Positions 8,604 to 14,107 of a stretch of 55,460 bases of DNA are shown piece by piece (positions within the stretch are counted from its first letter, which is position 1; the number at the start of each line of letters is the position of its first letter). The position numbers were made by a program, and so were the translations under genes. Source of the DNA: a virus (Duplodnaviria > Caudoviricetes); the IMG/VR virus record IMGVR_UViG_3300034149_000152, positions 1-55,460 of that record. One strand, 5' to 3'. The notes under the pieces were generated by a model. That model searched no databases and was not told where the DNA came from. It was given only the letters and a program-made list of their open reading frames with translations.

Positions 8604-9022
8604 AACTGAAATACATCATCCTATCCATAGCGGCCACTGTGCTGCTTATCACCGCCTGCACCACGGCTCAATACACCCGTAACCCGGACGGCACCACGTC
8701 CACCAGTTACGCGGTTGATCCCAAGCTTACGGCTGGACTGGCAACGGCTGGGGCAGTGAACTCGGTGACGGCCGCCGTAAATCCATATTCACCGGCGGTT
8801 GAAATCGGTCTGACAACCATTACGGCGCTCGCCGCTTGGGTCGCCAAGCGCAAGACTGACAAGGCGAATCAACAAAGTCTGCTGCTCAAAACCGTGATTC
8901 AGGGAGTGGAAAATGGAGCCGATTCCAAGGTGAAGGCAGCCATTCAAGCCCAGGCCACAGCCGTTGGCGTTGAGGGTGAACTTGGGACCACTGTGCAAAA
9001 GATCAATTCGGGTATCCTGTAA
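8600..9022 (+). CDS. Lipoprotein (possible spanin-like lysis protein)
   Basis: Lipobox LLITA-C plus a second hydrophobic segment. Confidence 0.5.
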   Translation: MKLKYIILSIAATVLLITACTTAQYTRNPDGTTSTSYAVDPKLTAGLATAGAVNSVTAAVNPYSPAVEIGLTTITALAAWVAKRKTDKANQQSLLLKTVIQGVENGADSKVKAAIQAQATAVGVEGELGTTVQKINSGIL

Positions 9023-9024
9023 TT

Positions 9025-11976
9025 TCAGGCTGCTTGATTGAGTTGCCCGCAAGTTATGAGCTTGCGGGCTTTTTTGCGCAGTTCATCGCGCCAGTCCGGT
9101 CCACGCTTGATCTTGGGCGCCATGGTGGACAGTTTGGTGATGACGAATCCCCGCTGGCGGGCGCCAAAGAGGCCGACGGAGACTGCATCGGCACAATTTT
9201 GGACTAGAATCCCGTTTGCGTAGTAAGCGTTATGATCCACCAGGGTCAGGTTGTAAACCCTTTCGGACTTTCCATCTCCGTATGGCAGCACACTTATGGG
9301 AGCAACATTCCGTTGATTCGTGCTTAAACACACTAAACTCTTTACCACATTCCACACACAATCGAATAACGACATTTCGTTTTCTTGAGGATTTTTGCTG
9401 GCAACTATTGGAGCAGTATTTGGCGTCCCTAAATGACTTGAACTCAAATTTGATTCCGCAAACATCACACTTGTGGGTTTTAGGCTTTCGGTTCTTCCAC
9501 TGTTCCTTGGAGTGTTCGCTGTGCCACTTTCTGCCGGCATCGGTTCCATGCCATGCAACAGCCGCTTTGACAGCCTTTGAAATCGAAACCTTATTTCTTG
9601 CAGCAAACTCAGGGTCTTGGAACCGTTCCAGCATGTGATGGCGCCCGTGATCCCTGACCTCCATGAGTTCAAGATTTTCGATTGAGTTATTGCGCCAGTT
9701 GTCATCCTTATGATGGACACACATACGCGGAGGAATAAGCCCATGGTGCTCAATCCAGATGACTCGGTGTAGAAGTCTCTCACCCTGATTATTCCCGTGG
9801 TAGCCGTCTTGAAAGTATCGGCCAGAGCTTTGAAGCCAGTATTTCCGGCCTTTGTAAACAAAGCGTTCAATAGATGCCATAGGAATAGGGTTTTAACCCC
9901 TTCCACCCGGTCTGTCAACTTCAACTCGCACAATTTTATCCACCCGCGTGTCCATGTGAAAACCCTGTGCGACCCCTTTCCTGTAAGGCTGGAGCCGTCA
10001 CTGAATGAGGATCGGAAAAGACTGCTTGTTTCCACGCAATGAACGGCTATTACGGCTGACGGACCAAACGGAGTTTCCACCATATCTCCAATACAAATTC
10101 TCTCAATCGGGACCTCGCCTGAAGGGGTATCAATCATGGTTCCAGACACAAAACAATCGGGCGATCTTCCGCTTTTTTGCCGCATGTCATCCTTGCTCTC
10201 GATTTCAATTCTATTCCCGGAAACCATCTTCCATTCGCGCTGGCAGAATTCCGTGCAGGCTTCCTCGGTCATGCCACGGAACTGTCCGGCTTCGACGGCG
10301 TATCGGACGGAAAACCACAACTCGGTTACGAACTTGGAATAGTAATCCCGGCAGGGAGTGGTAATCTCTGCGCTGACGGGCTTTTCAGATGGCTTGCCGC
10401 CGCAGTCAATCGAGTTGACGTTCACATCCCACAATCGCGAGAAGGCCGTGACCAACGATGTTCTCATGCCGGCATCGTAGAAGAAATTACCGGGCACTAT
10501 GCCGCGTCCAACGCATTGCTCCATCACGAACTTGACGATTTGATCCTCCGCCTGATCGGATCCAGGAGTGGAATCAATGGGAACGATCATCAGGTCTATT
10601 AGCGCGATTATCTGGCGGCCACGCTCTGACATTGGCGACTGGGAGATCATCGTGGATACCAGCGCCTCTGGACTCAGCGGTTCAACCTCGTAACCGAATT
10701 GAAGCTCGCCAAACACGCAGCGGTCGCCACCCACTCCACGGTAGGCCGCATCCAGAAATGCGATTCGTGTCCTTCTTGAATCCCGCCAGTTAGGCGACTC
10801 AAACGCCTTGAACTTGAGGCAGGCTTGCCGCGTAAGCACCCGTCGCGATCCCTGGCCACGCGGCATCTTGGCATCAACGAACATCTGATGATGCCAGTCG
10901 TCAACGCCCCATATTTTAGCCTCATCTGCTATGTGCTCTCGCGTGATAAGGAATGGAAATGGAGGAGGTTCCCCCGGCGGGGCCGCCATGTTGGGAGAAT
11001 CGTTTCCGGGAAGCTGTATGCAGATGCCATTCGGAAACCGGGTCGGCCAGGTCTTGGTGCCTGGCATCTGGTCGGCGCCGCCTTCCCATCCCCCCATCTC
11101 TACTGAAGGCTCACACAGGAAACCGTGGGCATTGGTGGTCTCACTTGGATTTCCAAGCCCAACCAGCTTGAAGTCCTCGCACTTACTCAGGTTGGAGGCG
11201 GAGTCCAAAAAGGCGCGCGGCATGAGTTGCAATTCGTCAGCTAAAATCCTAACGCGCTTGTTGTGTATCCCGATGAGTGATTGGATGCCGACGTAGGTAT
11301 TACCTTTTCGGGTGGCTACAGCGATAATTCCGTTCTTAAAATCCCGGCCTTCACCAGCCTCGTCCTTGGGATTAAGTGTGAGCATCTGTTTGCCTTCTAT
11401 CAGATAACCGGGAATCCAGTTGTGCTCCGACTTCACCGAACGATGATATTTTTTTATCATTCCCCAGATGCGAAGTTCAAGACTCTTGAGGTCCGTAGAT
11501 GAAACAAGAACCGTGGTGTAGCTGGAATGGGCATACCAATCGGTGAGCACGTTGCCGCCAAACGAATCCGATTTTCCAGATGATGCACAGCCACACGCGC
11601 CTATGTATTTGTAGTTCAGATAAACTTCCAGGCACTTCTCCGCCCAATAGTTTTTGAACGGACCTTTCTCCCAAATCTTCTCCGGCCAGGCGATCTCCTG
11701 GAAACGGCGGTAATGGTAGTACAATCCGTTGCCGGCGGTTTCACCGTCCGATTTTGTCCATGTTCCACCTTGGGTAATCATGTCCAACTCGATCTTCAAC
11801 GGGGTCGCGTACGGACTGAACCACATGTTGTATTTTTTGAATCTGCCGGATGATTTGATGTAGGTGGGTTTTATCGCCGGGAATTGCTGCGATGCTGGAA
11901 TCTGGACTTGCGGTGGTATTGGAAGGACTTCCGGTGCTGGAATCTGGACTTCCGGTGGGCTGGCATCAGTGCTCAT
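9025..11976 (-). CDS. terL: Terminase large subunit, intein-containing
   Basis: Walker A-like GCASSGKS, Walker B ILADE, coupling motif LGNP, nuclease motifs FLDAA..GGDRC and GRSPD|CADA. Start placed at ATG 11976 because the longer ORF overlaps the divergent 12020 gene. Confidence 0.9.
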   Translation of the reverse strand: MSTDASPPEVQIPAPEVLPIPPQVQIPASQQFPAIKPTYIKSSGRFKKYNMWFSPYATPLKIELDMITQGGTWTKSDGETAGNGLYYHYRRFQEIAWPEKIWEKGPFKNYWAEKCLEVYLNYKYIGACGCASSGKSDSFGGNVLTDWYAHSSYTTVLVSSTDLKSLELRIWGMIKKYHRSVKSEHNWIPGYLIEGKQMLTLNPKDEAGEGRDFKNGIIAVATRKGNTYVGIQSLIGIHNKRVRILADELQLMPRAFLDSASNLSKCEDFKLVGLGNPSETTNAHGFLCEPSVEMGGWEGGADQMPGTKTWPTRFPNGICIQLPGNDSPNMAAPPGEPPPFPFLITREHIADEAKIWGVDDWHHQMFVDAKMPRGQGSRRVLTRQACLKFKAFESPNWRDSRRTRIAFLDAAYRGVGGDRCVFGELQFGYEVEPLSPEALVSTMISQSPMSERGRQIIALIDLMIVPIDSTPGSDQAEDQIVKFVMEQCVGRGIVPGNFFYDAGMRTSLVTAFSRLWDVNVNSIDCGGKPSEKPVSAEITTPCRDYYSKFVTELWFSVRYAVEAGQFRGMTEEACTEFCQREWKMVSGNRIEIESKDDMRQKSGRSPDCFVSGTMIDTPSGEVPIERICIGDMVETPFGPSAVIAVHCVETSSLFRSSFSDGSSLTGKGSHRVFTWTRGWIKLCELKLTDRVEGVKTLFLWHLLNALFTKAGNTGFKALADTFKTATTGIIRVRDFYTESSGLSTMGLFLRVCVSIIRMTTGAITQSKILNSWRSGITGAITCWNGSKTLSLLQEIRFRFQRLSKRLLHGMEPMPAESGTANTPRNSGRTESLKPTSVMFAESNLSSSHLGTPNTAPIVASKNPQENEMSLFDCVWNVVKSLVCLSTNQRNVAPISVLPYGDGKSERVYNLTLVDHNAYYANGILVQNCADAVSVGLFGARQRGFVITKLSTMAPKIKRGPDWRDELRKKARKLITCGQLNQAA
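9196..10155 (-). mobile_element. Intein (320 aa) in the TerL nuclease motif SPD|CADA
   Basis: Block A CFVSGTMIDTPSGEVPIERI, block B LTGKGSHRVFT, blocks F/G VYNLTL...YYANGILVQN, and +1 Cys. Confidence 0.92.
9230..9880 (-). CDS. HNH endonuclease with C-terminal Zn-ribbons, nested out of frame inside the TerL intein
   Basis: LLHRVIW..HHG.IP...VHHKDDNWRNNSIENLEL...DH.RHH, plus CDVC/CSNSC and CVEC/CSHKC. It lies in the -1 frame relative to the intein. Confidence 0.88.
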   Translation of the reverse strand: MASIERFVYKGRKYWLQSSGRYFQDGYHGNNQGERLLHRVIWIEHHGLIPPRMCVHHKDDNWRNNSIENLELMEVRDHGRHHMLERFQDPEFAARNKVSISKAVKAAVAWHGTDAGRKWHSEHSKEQWKNRKPKTHKCDVCGIKFEFKSFRDAKYCSNSCQQKSSRKRNVVIRLCVECGKEFSVFKHESTECCSHKCAAIRRWKVRKGLQPDPGGS

Positions 11977-11983
11977 TGTTTGC

Positions 11984-12019
11984 TTGAAATGAAGGTGGTT
12001 CAGACGCATTGTCGGGTCA
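11984..12019. promoter_or_regulatory. Overlapping divergent promoter candidates between terL and the tail genes
   Basis: Plus strand TTGAAA-N17-CATTGT-N7-ATG(12020). Minus strand TTGACC-N17-CACCTT toward terL. The -10 boxes are weak. Confidence 0.35.
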
Positions 12020-14107
12020 ATGCCGGAAAGCGATGTCATCATTACGGATGGTTCGATAGATTTCTCGGGTGGAGTAAATTCCATAGCCACGACCACGATT
12101 CAATCCCAGCGAAATCCCAACGGCCTTCCTCGCAATCAACTTGCCTGGATGGATAACTGCACTGTCCGCGACGGCGGCATCACCTGCCGCTCTGGATTCC
12201 ATCGGATCATGCAGGTCCACAACAGCGCGGGATTCTTCCAGGGCAAGTTCATGTATGAACCGCAGAGCGCCGATCCTTACGAGGTCATGTCCATCAGCGG
12301 GCACATCTATCTGGTCAACATTGACGCTCACGTGGTCATTGATCTGACGGCGGCATTCCCGGCCAATGTGCCCCAGTTCAATCCGGGTGGCGATGTTCAG
12401 GCGTTCTTCGTTCAGGCCGAACAATTCCTGGTGATTCAAGCCGGGGACAGCACGACGCTACCGTTTATCTGGGATGGAACAACTTTGAGGCGAAGTATTG
12501 GCACCACCGATATTGTGGCCGGTCAGCCTGCGGCGACTTATGGACTAACGCCAACCGATACGTGGGTGGTGCCACCACTGGCTTCCACGACCACGCTGAA
12601 TCTTCCAACTCAATATCCTGGAATTGTGGGAAACATCGGAGTCTATCAGGTGAATGCTGGAAGCCTGCCGGTTGGCACTTTTCAGGTGACTGCATTTACT
12701 GCCATCGCGCCATTTACGCTGACGCTGAAAACAAACGCAACCAACGCCATAGGAAAGAAAATCCTGGCTGGATTCGCCGCCACATTCACCGTTGGGCCTG
12801 TTCCGTCGCCGCCCAATACCAGCGAACTCCCCGCCGCCGGGGCCATGGACTATTTCATGGGGCGCCTATGGTATGCCCAAGGCCGTCAGGTATCCGCCGG
12901 AGACATTGTGCGCGGGCCATCAGGAACTCTGGCCTACGACTTCACCGACTCCGTTCTGAAAGTAACCGAGAATCCCATGGTGCTGGGCGGGGACGGATTC
13001 ACGATCCCATCCAGCGACGGCAATGTCATTCGGGCGATCAAGCACAGTGCCAACATTGATGCCGCACTTGGCCAAGGTCGGCTGTTCGTAGGCACCCGCA
13101 AGGCCATTTATGCCATGAACGTACCAGTCACCAGGGACGAGTGGATTGCCGCCGGCAACAACAACCAGCCGTTGATGACCCCGGTTCAACTGGCCAATGG
13201 CTGGGTCAACGACCGTTCCGTGGTGGCGGTGAATGGCGACTTGTTCTATCAGTCTTTGGAGCCGGGCATACGGTCACTCAACCAATCCACTCGCTTCTTT
13301 GGCCAGTGGGGTAACATCCCTATCAGCGCCAACGAGAATCGAATCCTGCAATACAACAACCGCGCCCTGCTGCGCTATTCGAGCGGAATCTATTTTGACA
13401 ATCGCCTGCTTCAAACCCAGCTTCCGGTATCCACGGCTCAAGGCGTGATAAGCCGCGCCTTGGTGCCAATGGACTTCCTTCCCATCAGCAGCTTCAATAA
13501 GCAGAAGGAGCCGACCTGGGAAGGCATGTATGAAGGGCTGGATATTTTCCAGCTTAACACCGGCGACTTCGGAGGACGCGAGCGCGCCTTCGCCACGGTG
13601 AGATCGCAACTGGATTCCAGCATTGAACTCTGGGAGATAACCACGGGGACGAGATTCGACACGATCCAAGGCGAGGAACATCGCACAGTCTGGGTCATGG
13701 AATTCCCGGCATTCACATGGGGCGATGAGACGATTCTAAAGCGCCTTGAGGGGGCCGAGATATGGGTGGACCGCATTTATGGCGTGGTGCAATTCACGTT
13801 AGAGTACAGGCCCGATGGACAGGCTTGCTGGATCAACTGGCATAACTGGAAAATCTGTAACACGAAGAACACCGATGAGAGCGTCCAGAATCCAATCTCC
13901 TATCCGGTTCAGCCATGTTTGGAGGGGTATCGCTCTACAATGACCCTGCCGAAGCCTCCATCAGACATCTGTTCAACTGGACGGCCATCGGATTTAGGCT
14001 ATCAATTCCAACCTCGTCTGGTCATTAAAGGCTTCGCCAGGATTCGCGGTTTGTATTTACACGCGACCAAAGTTGGGCGACAACTCTATGCGAATATAAC
14101 GTGTTGA
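12020..14107 (+). CDS. Tail tubular protein B / P22 gp10-like stabilisation protein (putative)
   Basis: 695 aa, beta-rich. N-terminal DFSGGVNS...NQLAWMDNC...GGITCRSG pattern is typical of podovirus nozzle proteins. Confidence 0.65.
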   Translation: MPESDVIITDGSIDFSGGVNSIATTTIQSQRNPNGLPRNQLAWMDNCTVRDGGITCRSGFHRIMQVHNSAGFFQGKFMYEPQSADPYEVMSISGHIYLVNIDAHVVIDLTAAFPANVPQFNPGGDVQAFFVQAEQFLVIQAGDSTTLPFIWDGTTLRRSIGTTDIVAGQPAATYGLTPTDTWVVPPLASTTTLNLPTQYPGIVGNIGVYQVNAGSLPVGTFQVTAFTAIAPFTLTLKTNATNAIGKKILAGFAATFTVGPVPSPPNTSELPAAGAMDYFMGRLWYAQGRQVSAGDIVRGPSGTLAYDFTDSVLKVTENPMVLGGDGFTIPSSDGNVIRAIKHSANIDAALGQGRLFVGTRKAIYAMNVPVTRDEWIAAGNNNQPLMTPVQLANGWVNDRSVVAVNGDLFYQSLEPGIRSLNQSTRFFGQWGNIPISANENRILQYNNRALLRYSSGIYFDNRLLQTQLPVSTAQGVISRALVPMDFLPISSFNKQKEPTWEGMYEGLDIFQLNTGDFGGRERAFATVRSQLDSSIELWEITTGTRFDTIQGEEHRTVWVMEFPAFTWGDETILKRLEGAEIWVDRIYGVVQFTLEYRPDGQACWINWHNWKICNTKNTDESVQNPISYPVQPCLEGYRSTMTLPKPPSDICSTGRPSDLGYQFQPRLVIKGFARIRGLYLHATKVGRQLYANITC

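Follow-up and report, generated by a model that had tools for sequence, protein, structure and literature searches.

The large terminase gene (terL) in the window analysed here (the whole 55,460-nucleotide stretch, IMG/VR record IMGVR_UViG_3300034149_000152, Caudoviricetes) is interrupted by an intein, and the middle of this intein is also open in a second reading frame that encodes an HNH endonuclease. We think, with a probability of about 0.8, that terL carries a mobile intein and that the homing endonuclease of this intein is encoded by a gene of its own, overprinted on it, the activities of both being those predicted from their sequences. The locus is composed of the following features:

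9025..12096, minus strand: terL (large terminase) open reading frame with its intein; the longest ORF has 1023 aa.
10156..12096, minus strand: N-extein (TerL ATPase and most of the nuclease domain), ending in GRSPD, from sequence and alignment.
9196..10155, minus strand: class-1 intein of 320 aa (Cys1 to Asn320).
9881..10155, minus strand: N-terminal splicing part (blocks A and B), coding in the TerL frame only, as judged from codon-position diversity.
9893..9895, minus strand: TAA that closes the HNH frame 15 nt ahead of its ATG, read from the sequence.
9230..9880, minus strand: HNH endonuclease gene overprinted on terL in its -1 frame, coding for 216 aa (ATG at 9878-9880, TAA at 9230-9232).
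9635..9775, minus strand: HNH_3 catalytic core, residues 36-82 (H56, H57, N69, H78, H82); the Pfam match covers residues 36-80.
9401..9469, minus strand: zinc ribbon 1 of the HNH protein (C138, C141, C156, C160), from its invariant cysteines.
9290..9358, minus strand: zinc ribbon 2 (C175, C178, C193, C197); C175, C178 and C197 are invariant and C193 is present in at least 90%.
9271..9879, minus strand: "shadow" segment, the TerL-frame reading of the HNH gene, stop-free and not conserved as protein.
9196..9270, minus strand: C-terminal splicing blocks F/G (..VYNLTLVDHNAYYANGILVQN), from sequence and alignment.
9025..9195, minus strand: C-extein of 56 aa plus stop codon, beginning with the +1 Cys (CADAVSVG..).

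The intein translation runs from CFVSG (block A starts CFVSGT) to ILVQN and is followed by Cys. For comparison, 59 homologous inteins were collected from viral contigs, 39 of which serve as representatives less than 85% identical in DNA; alignment queries were needed for this purpose, since a single-protein scan of the viral contigs with the HNH found nothing. In all 39 representatives C1, T6, T10 and G13 of block A, H63 of block B, N320 and the Cys at +1 are invariant, so that the N-terminal Cys, the block-B His and the C-terminal Asn followed by Cys point to a class-1 intein of HINT fold. The window shows Lys where Thr is usual, three residues before the block-B His, and its penultimate intein residue is Gln, not His. 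In the TerL frame of the terL ORF, Pfam recognizes only Hint_2 (30.6 bits, cut-off 28.4) and a sub-threshold Intein_splicing, with no nuclease family. We infer protein splicing because unspliced terL would be left without the end of its nuclease motif; a group I or II intron was also looked for, and Rfam gave no matches at E up to 1 in 8900-10500.

TerL shows recognizable Walker A (SSGKS) and Walker B (ADEL) motifs, and the N-extein is 25% identical (E 2e-5) to "terminase" genes of seven Streptomyces phages. Searches with Pfam, PHROGs and NCBIfam left the N-extein unnamed, and a sequence search of the PDB returned nothing useful for it or for the HNH profile. An intein-less TerL homologue (P0201), used as the Atlas query as the N-extein itself is absent from the Atlas, adjoins Terminase_6N/6C clusters with scores of 0.98-0.99, a lead only. 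The PHROG "terminase" match of the whole terL ORF falls solely within the intein. The database protein for terL (P0002, 1005 aa) starts at 12042, 18 codons downstream of the longest-ORF start.

The second reading frame is recognized independently, by Pfam as HNH_3 (PF13392; E 6.6e-14, 51.7 bits with a cut-off of 24.8) and by PHROGs as phrog_15471 "HNH endonuclease" (E 4.8e-25), with no Endonuclease_7 match in Pfam at E up to 0.1. Over 9196..10155 the TerL frame has no stops, the HNH frame has 5, all outside intein codons 87-306, and the third frame has 27; the plus-strand frames have 19, 11 and 12. The HNH ORF reaches into block F with its final 41 nt, and its stop codon is supplied by the His-Asn codons of that block. 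A sequence-only reading of this DNA had claimed a 320-aa TerL intein with splicing blocks and no endonuclease motifs in its own frame, and in the -1 frame a 216-aa HNH protein with intact catalytic motifs, two Zn-ribbons, its own ATG and an in-frame TAA shortly upstream, both frames remaining open. All of this was reproduced, and its proposal that profile searches should find Hint only in one frame and HNH in the other was borne out.

The arrangement is only moderately improbable at a single locus. When the HNH protein was recoded with the extein codon usage, the TerL frame had 4.5 stops on average and was open in 0.57% of 3000 trials, and when its codons were permuted among synonyms the frame was open in 2.4% of trials, that is, a chance of 0.6-2.4%. 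Therefore, the case for dual coding rests on the comparative data. The shadow peptide, with a Kyte-Doolittle mean of -0.24 and a net charge of +8.3 per 100 aa, is not obviously disorder-like; its non-conservation suggests that it is tolerated as an unstructured linker.

In the mechanism that we propose, the terL mRNA would be read in frame 0 through the whole insert, giving a precursor formed by the N-extein, the intein (about 90 aa of N-terminal splicing part, a shadow linker of about 200 aa, which results from reading the HNH gene in +1, and a C-terminal splicing part of about 25 aa) and the 56-aa C-extein. Class-1 splicing via Cys1, the block-B His63, Asn320 and the +1 Cys would restore the nuclease motif SPD-C-ADA. 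Internal initiation in the -1 frame at the ATG (9880) would yield the 216-aa HNH_3 nuclease with its two C-terminal zinc ribbons, translation ending at the TAA in block F. In a mixed infection, this nuclease would cut an intein-less terL near the site coding for GRSPD-L-ADA, and the cut allele would acquire the intein together with the nuclease gene by repair. The lineage of this nuclease appears to be specialised on the 3' end of terL and is found in three states: free-standing, overprinted, and between the halves of a split intein.

Judging from its distribution, the element looks mobile. Among the 120 nearest TerL homologues (58-81% identical), 112 have no Hint domain, and two intein-less alleles (L076, L077) read GRSPD-L-ADA at the insertion site; such a sporadic presence among close terL alleles, with the empty site apparently intact, is what is expected of a homing endonuclease gene. 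At least four insertion points are used, one of them at Walker B in a different TerL family. In 38 representatives the HNH protein is 27-50% identical to that of the window, and their N-exteins range from 63% identity to no blastp hit (8/38). This decoupling suggests that the element and its host gene have had different histories.

The same data bear on the possibility that the HNH protein is a terminase packaging helper rather than a homing enzyme, placed inside terL for co-expression. HK97 gp74 is an HNH protein with a role in packaging. The position of the family would fit: the cultured-phage homologues (27 tblastn hits) all lie at or beside terminase genes, a constancy that packaging would also explain, and Acinetobacter phage BP10 has the gene order HNH-terS-terL, with the HNH before terS. 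There is also a parallel in the zinc-ribbon HNH nucleases described as adjoining cos sites and terminase genes in the available text of PMC3592412. However, the 112 homologues without intein are therefore without this HNH copy as well (the count refers to the intein copy only), carriers are few in well-sampled phage groups (3 Salmonella and 3 Pseudomonas records among the 27 matches), terL stays open in variants in which the HNH has a nonsense codon or a deletion, and HNH similarity does not follow extein similarity. We thus regard a packaging role as improbable, although it is the strongest of the alternatives to a homing nuclease overprinted on a mobile intein.

The comparison of homologous loci demonstrates dual coding and indicates on which frame selection acts. 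The TerL frame has no stops in 59/59 homologous inteins, the third frame has 10-48, and in 54/59 loci the -1 frame stays open over 209 codons or more. All 60 of the -1-frame stretches match the HNH of the window (E 2e-70 to 5e-13), and none of the 60 third-frame stretches does. Nucleotide diversity at TerL codon positions 1/2/3 is 0.457/0.356/0.671 in the N-terminal splicing part, 0.435/0.625/0.487 in the overlap and 0.220/0.138/0.636 in the C-terminal splicing part; the same switch of periodicity is seen in three close pairs, with 12/3/52 differences as against 52/134/78. These values support selection on the HNH frame in mid-intein, the TerL-frame periodicity being confined to the splicing parts. 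When the same nucleotide blocks are translated, the HNH frame yields 40.1% amino-acid identity, compared with 24.9% for the TerL shadow and 22.4% for the third frame, which is never translated; HNH-frame identity exceeds shadow-frame identity in 741/741 pairs.

The TerL frame, for its part, appears to be selected to stay open over the HNH gene. In embedded copies it has no stops in 39/39 representatives and three cultured phages; the same frame has 4-11 stops in free-standing homologues (n=4) and 14 in the split form. Embedded loci make up 55 of the 68 distinct ones found with the HNH profile. They were told from free-standing ones by the open frame because block-motif patterns are too strict: these left 24 loci with "one block" and 7 with "no block" that nevertheless lie within ORFs of 386-1126 codons.

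It could still be thought that a past insertion left the HNH frame as an inactive relic and that only the TerL frame matters now. Decayed copies do exist, one TAA interrupting the HNH frame of L048 and likewise of L066, and the zinc ribbons being lost in L037/L045, with the TerL frame open in all of them. Nevertheless, third-codon-position variability follows the HNH frame, a selection pattern that already contradicts a relic, H56, H57, N69, H78, H82 and seven zinc-ribbon cysteines are invariant in 39/39 representatives despite their divergence, and a nonsense codon in the HNH frame occurs in only 2 of 50 distinct loci. We consider the relic very unlikely. The sequence-only reading had described a separately translated nuclease with a tolerated shadow linker, and had named as adverse to it both HNH-frame stops in homologues and indels restoring an in-frame HNH. 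Homologous terL inteins were collected as it had suggested, and their variability follows the HNH frame in mid-intein and the TerL frame in the splicing blocks; among 50 distinct loci, HNH-frame nonsense codons occur only in L048 and L066, and contigs of two other DNA runs show no indel at either boundary of the HNH ORF. Frame-specific selection, the conserved start and the stop-free TerL frame thus support its view of the locus. A further idea of that reading is that the dose and timing of the nuclease might in this way be uncoupled from splicing.

The start of the putative nuclease gene falls at intein codon 82-94 in all 39 representatives, being ATG in 36 and GTG in 3. A Shine-Dalgarno core precedes it in 13/39 representatives, compared with 9.4% of control positions. 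In the window, no Shine-Dalgarno motif is found at the usual distance before the HNH ATG, which fits this genome, where just one of 24 long ORFs has such a core. A sigma-70-like site at 9960-9933 (minus strand), 53 nt before the HNH ATG, is not evidence, as the region contains 4 such sites compared with 2.4 ± 1.5 in shuffles. RNA folding around the start (mean z -1.10, 13/39 below -2, window -0.12) gives no consistent regulatory hairpin, and accessibility at the start is 0.419 versus 0.468 in a control stretch. Two RNA libraries yielded contigs over 9094-9722 and 10110-10300; as such libraries can contain DNA, this coverage is not evidence of transcription, and its gaps carry no information.

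A nuclease produced by programmed -1 ribosomal frameshifting, as a fusion to the intein N-part with no start of its own, has in its favour the -1 relation of the two frames and a few loci in which the HNH frame is open far upstream, namely L035, from before the intein, and Tetrasphaera phage TJE1, for 305 codons. But in nearly all loci the -1 frame opens just 1-18 codons ahead of the start (in the window from intein codon 87.7), the window has its TAA between the intein N-part and the ATG with no X XXY YYZ heptamer between stop and start, and both the conservation of the start codon and the enrichment of Shine-Dalgarno cores upstream speak for independent initiation; frameshifting is thus even harder to sustain than the relic. 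The weakest proposal, an assembly or sequencing artefact in which two compensating indels mask an ordinary in-frame HNH intein, could invoke the called protein P0292, which joins the intein N-part and the HNH in one frame, but it is refuted by contigs from two other DNA runs that span both HNH ORF boundaries with 0 differences and 0 gaps and by the same frame relation in 59/59 independent loci and four GenBank phage genomes, no HNH Pfam domain occurs in the TerL frame among the 120 TerL homologues listed, and chance would not keep the TerL frame open in all loci.

Cultured phages exemplify each form. The nuclease is embedded in phages TJE1, phiCDHM19 and Highwayman, free-standing in CL2 and PAE1 (free-standing homologues sit between terL and portal), and located between the halves of the terL intein in Vibrio phages 1.238.A/B and 1.245.O; L108 is possibly a further split-intein form. 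The window is not a fractured gene, its TerL frame being free of stops and its intein contiguous. A search of genome contigs gave one locus only (L066), on a Patescibacteria MAG contig, which is not informative on hosts. That ordinary annotation would miss the nuclease, as predicted from the sequence alone, holds for the window, whose HNH is absent from the 10 proteins returned for it (5.8 billion clusters), and for four GenBank phages (TJE1, phiCDHM19, Highwayman and LS06-2018-MD07), in which only terL is annotated over the HNH. As the nuclease escapes standard gene callers, too few homing endonucleases are counted in phage annotation, and such inteins are labelled "endonuclease-less".

A broader proposition is that a single HNH_3/zinc-ribbon lineage, specialised on the 3' end of terL, switched repeatedly among the three states and, as a passenger of inteins, reached several insertion points and TerL families unrelated to each other, both frames being kept open over long divergence; we give this even odds. 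If true, it would provide the first large natural series of intermediates for nuclease capture by inteins and for the origin of split inteins, and the out-of-frame HNH would define a fifth "non-canonical" architecture of inteins. The present data show that nuclease genes overprinted on inteins are not necessarily rare and short-lived accidents: at least 39 lineages, less than 85% identical in DNA, have retained dual coding, with clear signatures that tell the selection on each frame. Besides, an intein able to accommodate an arbitrary insert of 200 aa is of practical interest to protein engineers.

The combination of an intein with an HNH nuclease is reportedly known since a 1997 study, as a domain of the intein polypeptide. 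Intein and HNH are the same partners here, with no in-frame HNH among the 120 TerL homologues listed. Our literature searches found this HNH family unreported, gave three Gogarten-lab papers on out-of-frame nucleases and, for the named phages, no paper that mentions an intein in TJE1, phiCDHM19 or phiCD119. The architecture class itself is not new, as it has been in print since the 2025 preprint of Gosselin, Arsenault and Gogarten on actinobacteriophage inteins with the homing endonuclease in a separate reading frame (bioRxiv 10.1101/2025.01.02.630785). In the portions of that preprint available, the nuclease ORF occupies the region where inteins usually have their endonuclease, although in a different frame ("frame 3" of the same strand in one type), the intein frame is stop-free, the terminase large subunit is among the host proteins, and the origin proposed is a free-standing nuclease gene invading an intein. 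The out-of-frame or antisense nucleases described there are endonuclease VII-like, LAGLIDADG and VSR-like, with HNH only in frame, so that the window, with HNH_3 and two zinc ribbons, would be a further type. Those authors deem such architectures rare, whereas most of the distinct loci found here with the HNH profile are embedded. The only PhagesDB-type phage among our 27 tblastn hits, Tetrasphaera phage TJE1, goes unmentioned in the same portions.

Another close relative is the cyanobacterial dnaX intein with an out-of-frame LAGLIDADG endonuclease (bioRxiv 10.64898/2026.09.14.751524, which credits Gorbalenya 1998). According to its available text, the overlapping nuclease ORF is under purifying selection, the intein frame over it evolves freely, and its distribution is broad but sporadic, as in our case; it differs in nuclease, host gene and host group, and that text identifies no free-standing or split relatives. 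The ShiLan domain, an out-of-frame HNH within an insertion in a phage DNA methylase (PMC11855218), shares, as far as the accessible account goes, a stop-free host frame, an HNH stop in the last bases of the insert and a sporadic distribution. However, it is described there without splicing domains and is thought to be retained in the protein, with a GTG start lacking a ribosome-binding site for which leaderless initiation was proposed, whereas the overlap in the window is flanked by full intein blocks.

Fractured genes, in which the two halves of a split intein are separated by a free-standing endonuclease gene (Dassa et al. 2009, PMC2677866), complete the picture. In the available sections of that paper, the same model of a free-standing nuclease gene invading an intein is proposed, and the 3' end of the endonuclease overlaps the downstream coding region. 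Its nucleases are GIY-YIG and Vsr-like, not HNH. In the window the host frame is unbroken and the intein contiguous; a split form of this type with the present HNH family is that of the Vibrio phages. As cultured phages cover all three states, the model of nuclease capture put forward by Dassa et al. and Gosselin et al. can be tested at the bench. What is new here with respect to print is the nuclease family, the scale, and the series of free-standing, overprinted and split-intein forms.

The observation that an HNH endonuclease gene is overprinted on the intein of the large terminase gene (terL) is confirmed. The 55,460-bp virus record is complete, with terminal repeats, and it has the following features around terL.

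Features at and beside terL in the window
9025..12096, minus strand: terL ORF, 1023 aa (the database protein starts from 12042 and has 1005 aa)
10156..12096, minus strand: N-extein
9196..10155, minus strand: intein, 320 aa, CFVSG...ILVQN then Cys, TerL residues 648-967
9025..9195, minus strand: C-extein
9230..9880, minus strand: HNH ORF, 216 aa, in the -1 frame relative to terL
12020-14107, plus strand: 695-aa ORF beside terL, no match in Pfam, PHROG or NCBIfam
9045-9069, plus strand: GC-rich 11-bp hairpin, then a T-run, just past the terL stop, where the genes on either side converge, resembling a terminator

HMM searches on both frames agree with the sequence-only reading, which had described an intein with splicing blocks but without a nuclease, and a separate HNH ORF in the -1 frame. 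In the TerL frame a Hint_2 match above the Pfam cut-off is the only domain, and Pfam finds no nuclease domain there, whereas the 216-aa ORF matches HNH_3 of Pfam (E 6.6e-14) and phrog_15471 'HNH endonuclease' of PHROGs (E 4.8e-25). This ORF has its own ATG, and an in-frame TAA 15 nt 5' of it shuts the HNH frame. Within 9196..10155 the TerL frame holds no stop, the HNH frame five, each outside codons 87-306, and the third frame 27. The His-Asn codons in block F of the intein supply the TAA that ends the HNH ORF, whose final 41 nt therefore overlap functional intein sequence. The terminase family of the N-extein (10156-12096, minus strand) has more than 1000 homologues at E <= 1e-20 and is without a Pfam, PHROG or NCBIfam match. 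The N-extein matched 'terminase' genes in seven Streptomyces phages (25% identity, E 2e-5), and a 63%-identical intein-less homologue adjoins Terminase_6N/6C clusters in Atlas, which is a lead only but points to a terminase. For one TerL homologue, 63% identical, the source names a Verrucomicrobiota MAG as its origin.

An indel error is countered by contigs of two other DNA runs, which span the two ORF boundaries without a single difference or gap. Chance was evaluated in 3000 trials in which the HNH protein was given and the TerL frame was scored as open or not; it was open in 0.57% of the trials when the HNH was recoded and in 2.4% when its own codons were permuted. The case from the window locus by itself is moderate, and it is the comparative evidence that is decisive. 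An alignment-based scan of viral contigs gave 60 loci, and the intein match is full-length in 59. In all 59 the TerL frame is stop-free, with 10-48 stops in the third frame, and every one of the 60 -1-frame stretches (window included) matches the window HNH (E 2e-70 to 5e-13), while none of the 60 third-frame stretches does. The -1 frame stays open over at least 209 codons in 54 of the 59 loci; it is shorter in contig loci L037 and L045 (116 codons), L048 (125), L049 (179) and L057 (183), and the HNH frames of L048 and of L066 each have one TAA nonsense codon, with terL intact. The zinc ribbons are lost in L037/L045, again with terL intact.

Selection on the two frames was compared on 39 representatives, less than 85% identical; the 60 sequences represent 49 distinct DNAs, and the representatives were drawn from the 44 that remained after leaving out five with short or broken HNH frames (L037, L045, L048, L049, L057).

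Nucleotide diversity at TerL codon positions 1/2/3
N-splicing part: 0.457/0.356/0.671
Overlap: 0.435/0.625/0.487
C-splicing part: 0.220/0.138/0.636

Since TerL position 2 is HNH position 3, the wobble signal shifts to the HNH frame within the overlap, and it appears despite an alignment built on TerL-frame proteins. Three unsaturated pairs show 12/3/52 differences at positions 1/2/3 over the N-splicing part, compared with 52/134/78 over the overlap. Over identical nucleotide blocks, mean amino-acid identity is 40.1% in the HNH frame, 24.9% in the shadow frame (the TerL-frame reading of the HNH gene) and 22.4% in the third frame, the HNH frame exceeding the shadow frame in 741/741 pairs; the BLOSUM62 scores per residue are 2.10, 0.53 and 0.45, respectively. 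The shadow peptide is thus hardly more conserved than an untranslated frame. TerL-frame motifs that seemed conserved proved to be shadows of HNH motifs; the invariant Trp93 is TGG within the conserved ATGG of the HNH start. In the HNH alignment H56, H57, N69, H78, H82 and the cysteines of the two zinc ribbons are invariant in 39/39. Although the shadow peptide is poorly conserved, the TerL frame is kept open: it has 0 stops in 39/39 representatives (8-36 in the third frame), where synonymous permutation expects a mean of 2.37 per locus. As natural controls, the equivalent frame has 4-11 stops in four free-standing homologues and 14 in a split form, and 0 in three cultured phages with the embedded form.

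The start of the HNH gene is conserved, with ATG (36) or GTG (3) at intein codon 82-94 in 39/39 representatives, and the HNH frame generally opens just 1-18 codons 5' of it. A GGAG/GAGG/AGGA core lies 5-17 nt upstream in 13/39, versus 9.4% of 34,653 control positions taken from these inteins. It is absent at this distance before the HNH ATG of the window, where only 1/24 long ATG-start ORFs has such a core, which suggests that the host of this phage initiates without reliance on Shine-Dalgarno pairing. The window has no slippery heptamer in the stretch from the upstream TAA to the HNH ATG, and intron models of Rfam gave no match in region 8900-10500 (E up to 1).

The nuclease family is much broader than this locus. 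Among 1.84 billion proteins its profile matches 1,028 representatives with E <= 1e-30, a number that rises to 6,551 with E <= 1e-10, the best 150 matches being mostly 200-225 aa, and a word-based search with the window HNH found 10 proteins, the window's own ORF not among them. A TerL-intein query found 203 proteins; for 110 of the 120 listed the alignment covers 77% or more of the 424-aa query region, so that the shadow segment must be present in them, and Pfam finds no HNH domain in the TerL frame of any of these 120. Database protein P0292 (545 aa) carries Hint_2 and HNH_3 in one frame: N-extein, the N-part of the intein and some 25 shadow residues run into the HNH frame, which is entered at profile position 44 and followed to the HNH stop. 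This is a frameshifted variant or else an indel error. In P0271 (472 aa), HNH_3 is followed by the N-part of a P22-type portal, which fits the terL-HNH-portal order of the free-standing form and may be a read-through call or a fusion.

Among GenBank phages, tblastn with the window HNH retrieved 27 records. Four phages have the embedded form, with terL unbroken and the HNH in its -1 frame: Tetrasphaera phage TJE1, Clostridium phage phiCDHM19, Acinetobacter phage Highwayman and Rhodobacteraceae phage LS06-2018-MD07. In all of them the annotation is terL alone, so ordinary annotation does miss the gene, as had been anticipated. By frame arithmetic, phiCD119 appears to be embedded too, beneath an older piecemeal annotation. 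The TerL frame is interrupted in Vibrio phages 1.238.A/B and 1.245.O, where a TerL-N/intein-N ORF is followed by the HNH gene and then by a 'hint domain protein' with C-block and C-extein; locus L065 (phage 1.238.A, NC_055735.1 3333-8932), whose first ORF stops in the shadow region, is a cultured-phage example of fractured terL and split intein. Free-standing copies in the order terL-HNH-portal occur in Lactobacillus phage CL2, Exiguobacterium phage vB_EauM-23, Pseudomonas phage PAE1, Sphaerotilus phage SN1, Brevundimonas phage Poludnitsa and Salmonella phage Shemara, and before terS in Acinetobacter phage BP10. A profile scan of viral contigs kept 80 loci, 68 distinct, with the +1 frame open within an ORF of 386-1126 codons in 55/68 and with stops in 13/68, a count biased by a profile made from embedded copies. 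Twelve of the 13 are ORF-HNH-ORF without intein blocks, and the four tested have the order terL (phrog_2), HNH, portal. The thirteenth, L108 (519-3341), has a single TGA of the TerL frame in the shadow segment, an intact HNH frame and, after the TGA and again in the TerL frame, the C-block YYANGILVSNC; recoding is unlikely since other L108 ORFs end in TGA, and it may be a gene in course of fracturing, a dead allele or an error. The maximum-likelihood tree of 51 HNH proteins (midpoint root for drawing only, bootstrap not fully settled) requires at least two embedded/free changes on well-supported branches, and embedded Highwayman is the sister of free-standing BP10 (98/94).

The element also seems mobile. 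Among the best 120 TerL homologues by N-extein (58-81% identical), 112, of 536-673 aa, lack a Hint domain, and two intein-less alleles read ..GRSPD-L-ADA.. where the window has ..GRSPD-[intein]-C-ADA.. Five TerL proteins (P0082, P0100, P0101, P0210, P0212; 68-77% identical) align over just 56-58% of the N-extein and bear Intein_splicing or Hint domains, apparently an intein at a different position of the same terL family. HNH identity to the window is 27-50% across 38 representatives, and that of the N-extein goes from 63% (L005) down to no blastp hit in 8/38; contig locus L004 has an HNH among the closest (50%) and an N-extein at 29%. Insertion is at SPD|C-ADA in most, at SPDxxDAx|C-LTFA, and at two more points nearby (L004, L005). 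In L058 (1848-4046) and L060 the intein with its -1-frame HNH interrupts a phrog_38 terminase at the Walker-B site of the ATPase (..DD[IL]|C..), having switched site within terL relative to the nuclease-motif inteins.

At the level of sequence, the comparisons show two open frames, both under selection, a start codon that is conserved, splicing and catalytic residues that are intact, and a distribution that is sporadic and incongruent; they support the interpretation of an intein with a separately encoded nuclease. The terL message would be translated in both frames, class-1 splicing would restore SPD-C-ADA, and empty alleles would be cut near GRSPD-L-ADA, with repair copying the element. The shadow peptide, because it is poorly conserved, may be an insert that the intein tolerates at the point where nucleases are usually inserted; in composition it has no obvious disorder-like character.

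The architecture itself, taken as unknown by the sequence-only reading, was already described. Gosselin, Arsenault and Gogarten (bioRxiv 10.1101/2025.01.02.630785) describe inteins of actinophages, some of them in terL, with separate-frame nucleases: an antisense LAGLIDADG type, which they credit to Gorbalenya 1998, an antisense VSR-like type, and an endonuclease VII-like gene on the same strand in 'frame 3'. They propose that free-standing nuclease genes invade inteins. Other sources describe frame-specific selection in a dnaX intein (2026 preprint 10.64898/2026.09.14.751524), an out-of-frame HNH within a non-splicing insert (PMC11855218) and split inteins that enclose free-standing nuclease genes (Dassa et al. 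2009, PMC2677866); in these four texts, HNH domains of inteins are in-frame only. An out-of-frame HNH in an intein was not found in the literature searched, with supplements and most subscription journals outside it, nor was a report of an intein in TJE1, phiCDHM19 or phiCD119. Whereas the out-of-frame nucleases of Gosselin et al. are LAGLIDADG, VSR-like and endonuclease VII-like, that of the window is of the HNH_3/zinc-ribbon type, which is new within this recently described class of inteins. Its distinctive points are the scale, the clear two-frame selection signal and the existence of free-standing, overprinted and split forms in a single nuclease lineage.
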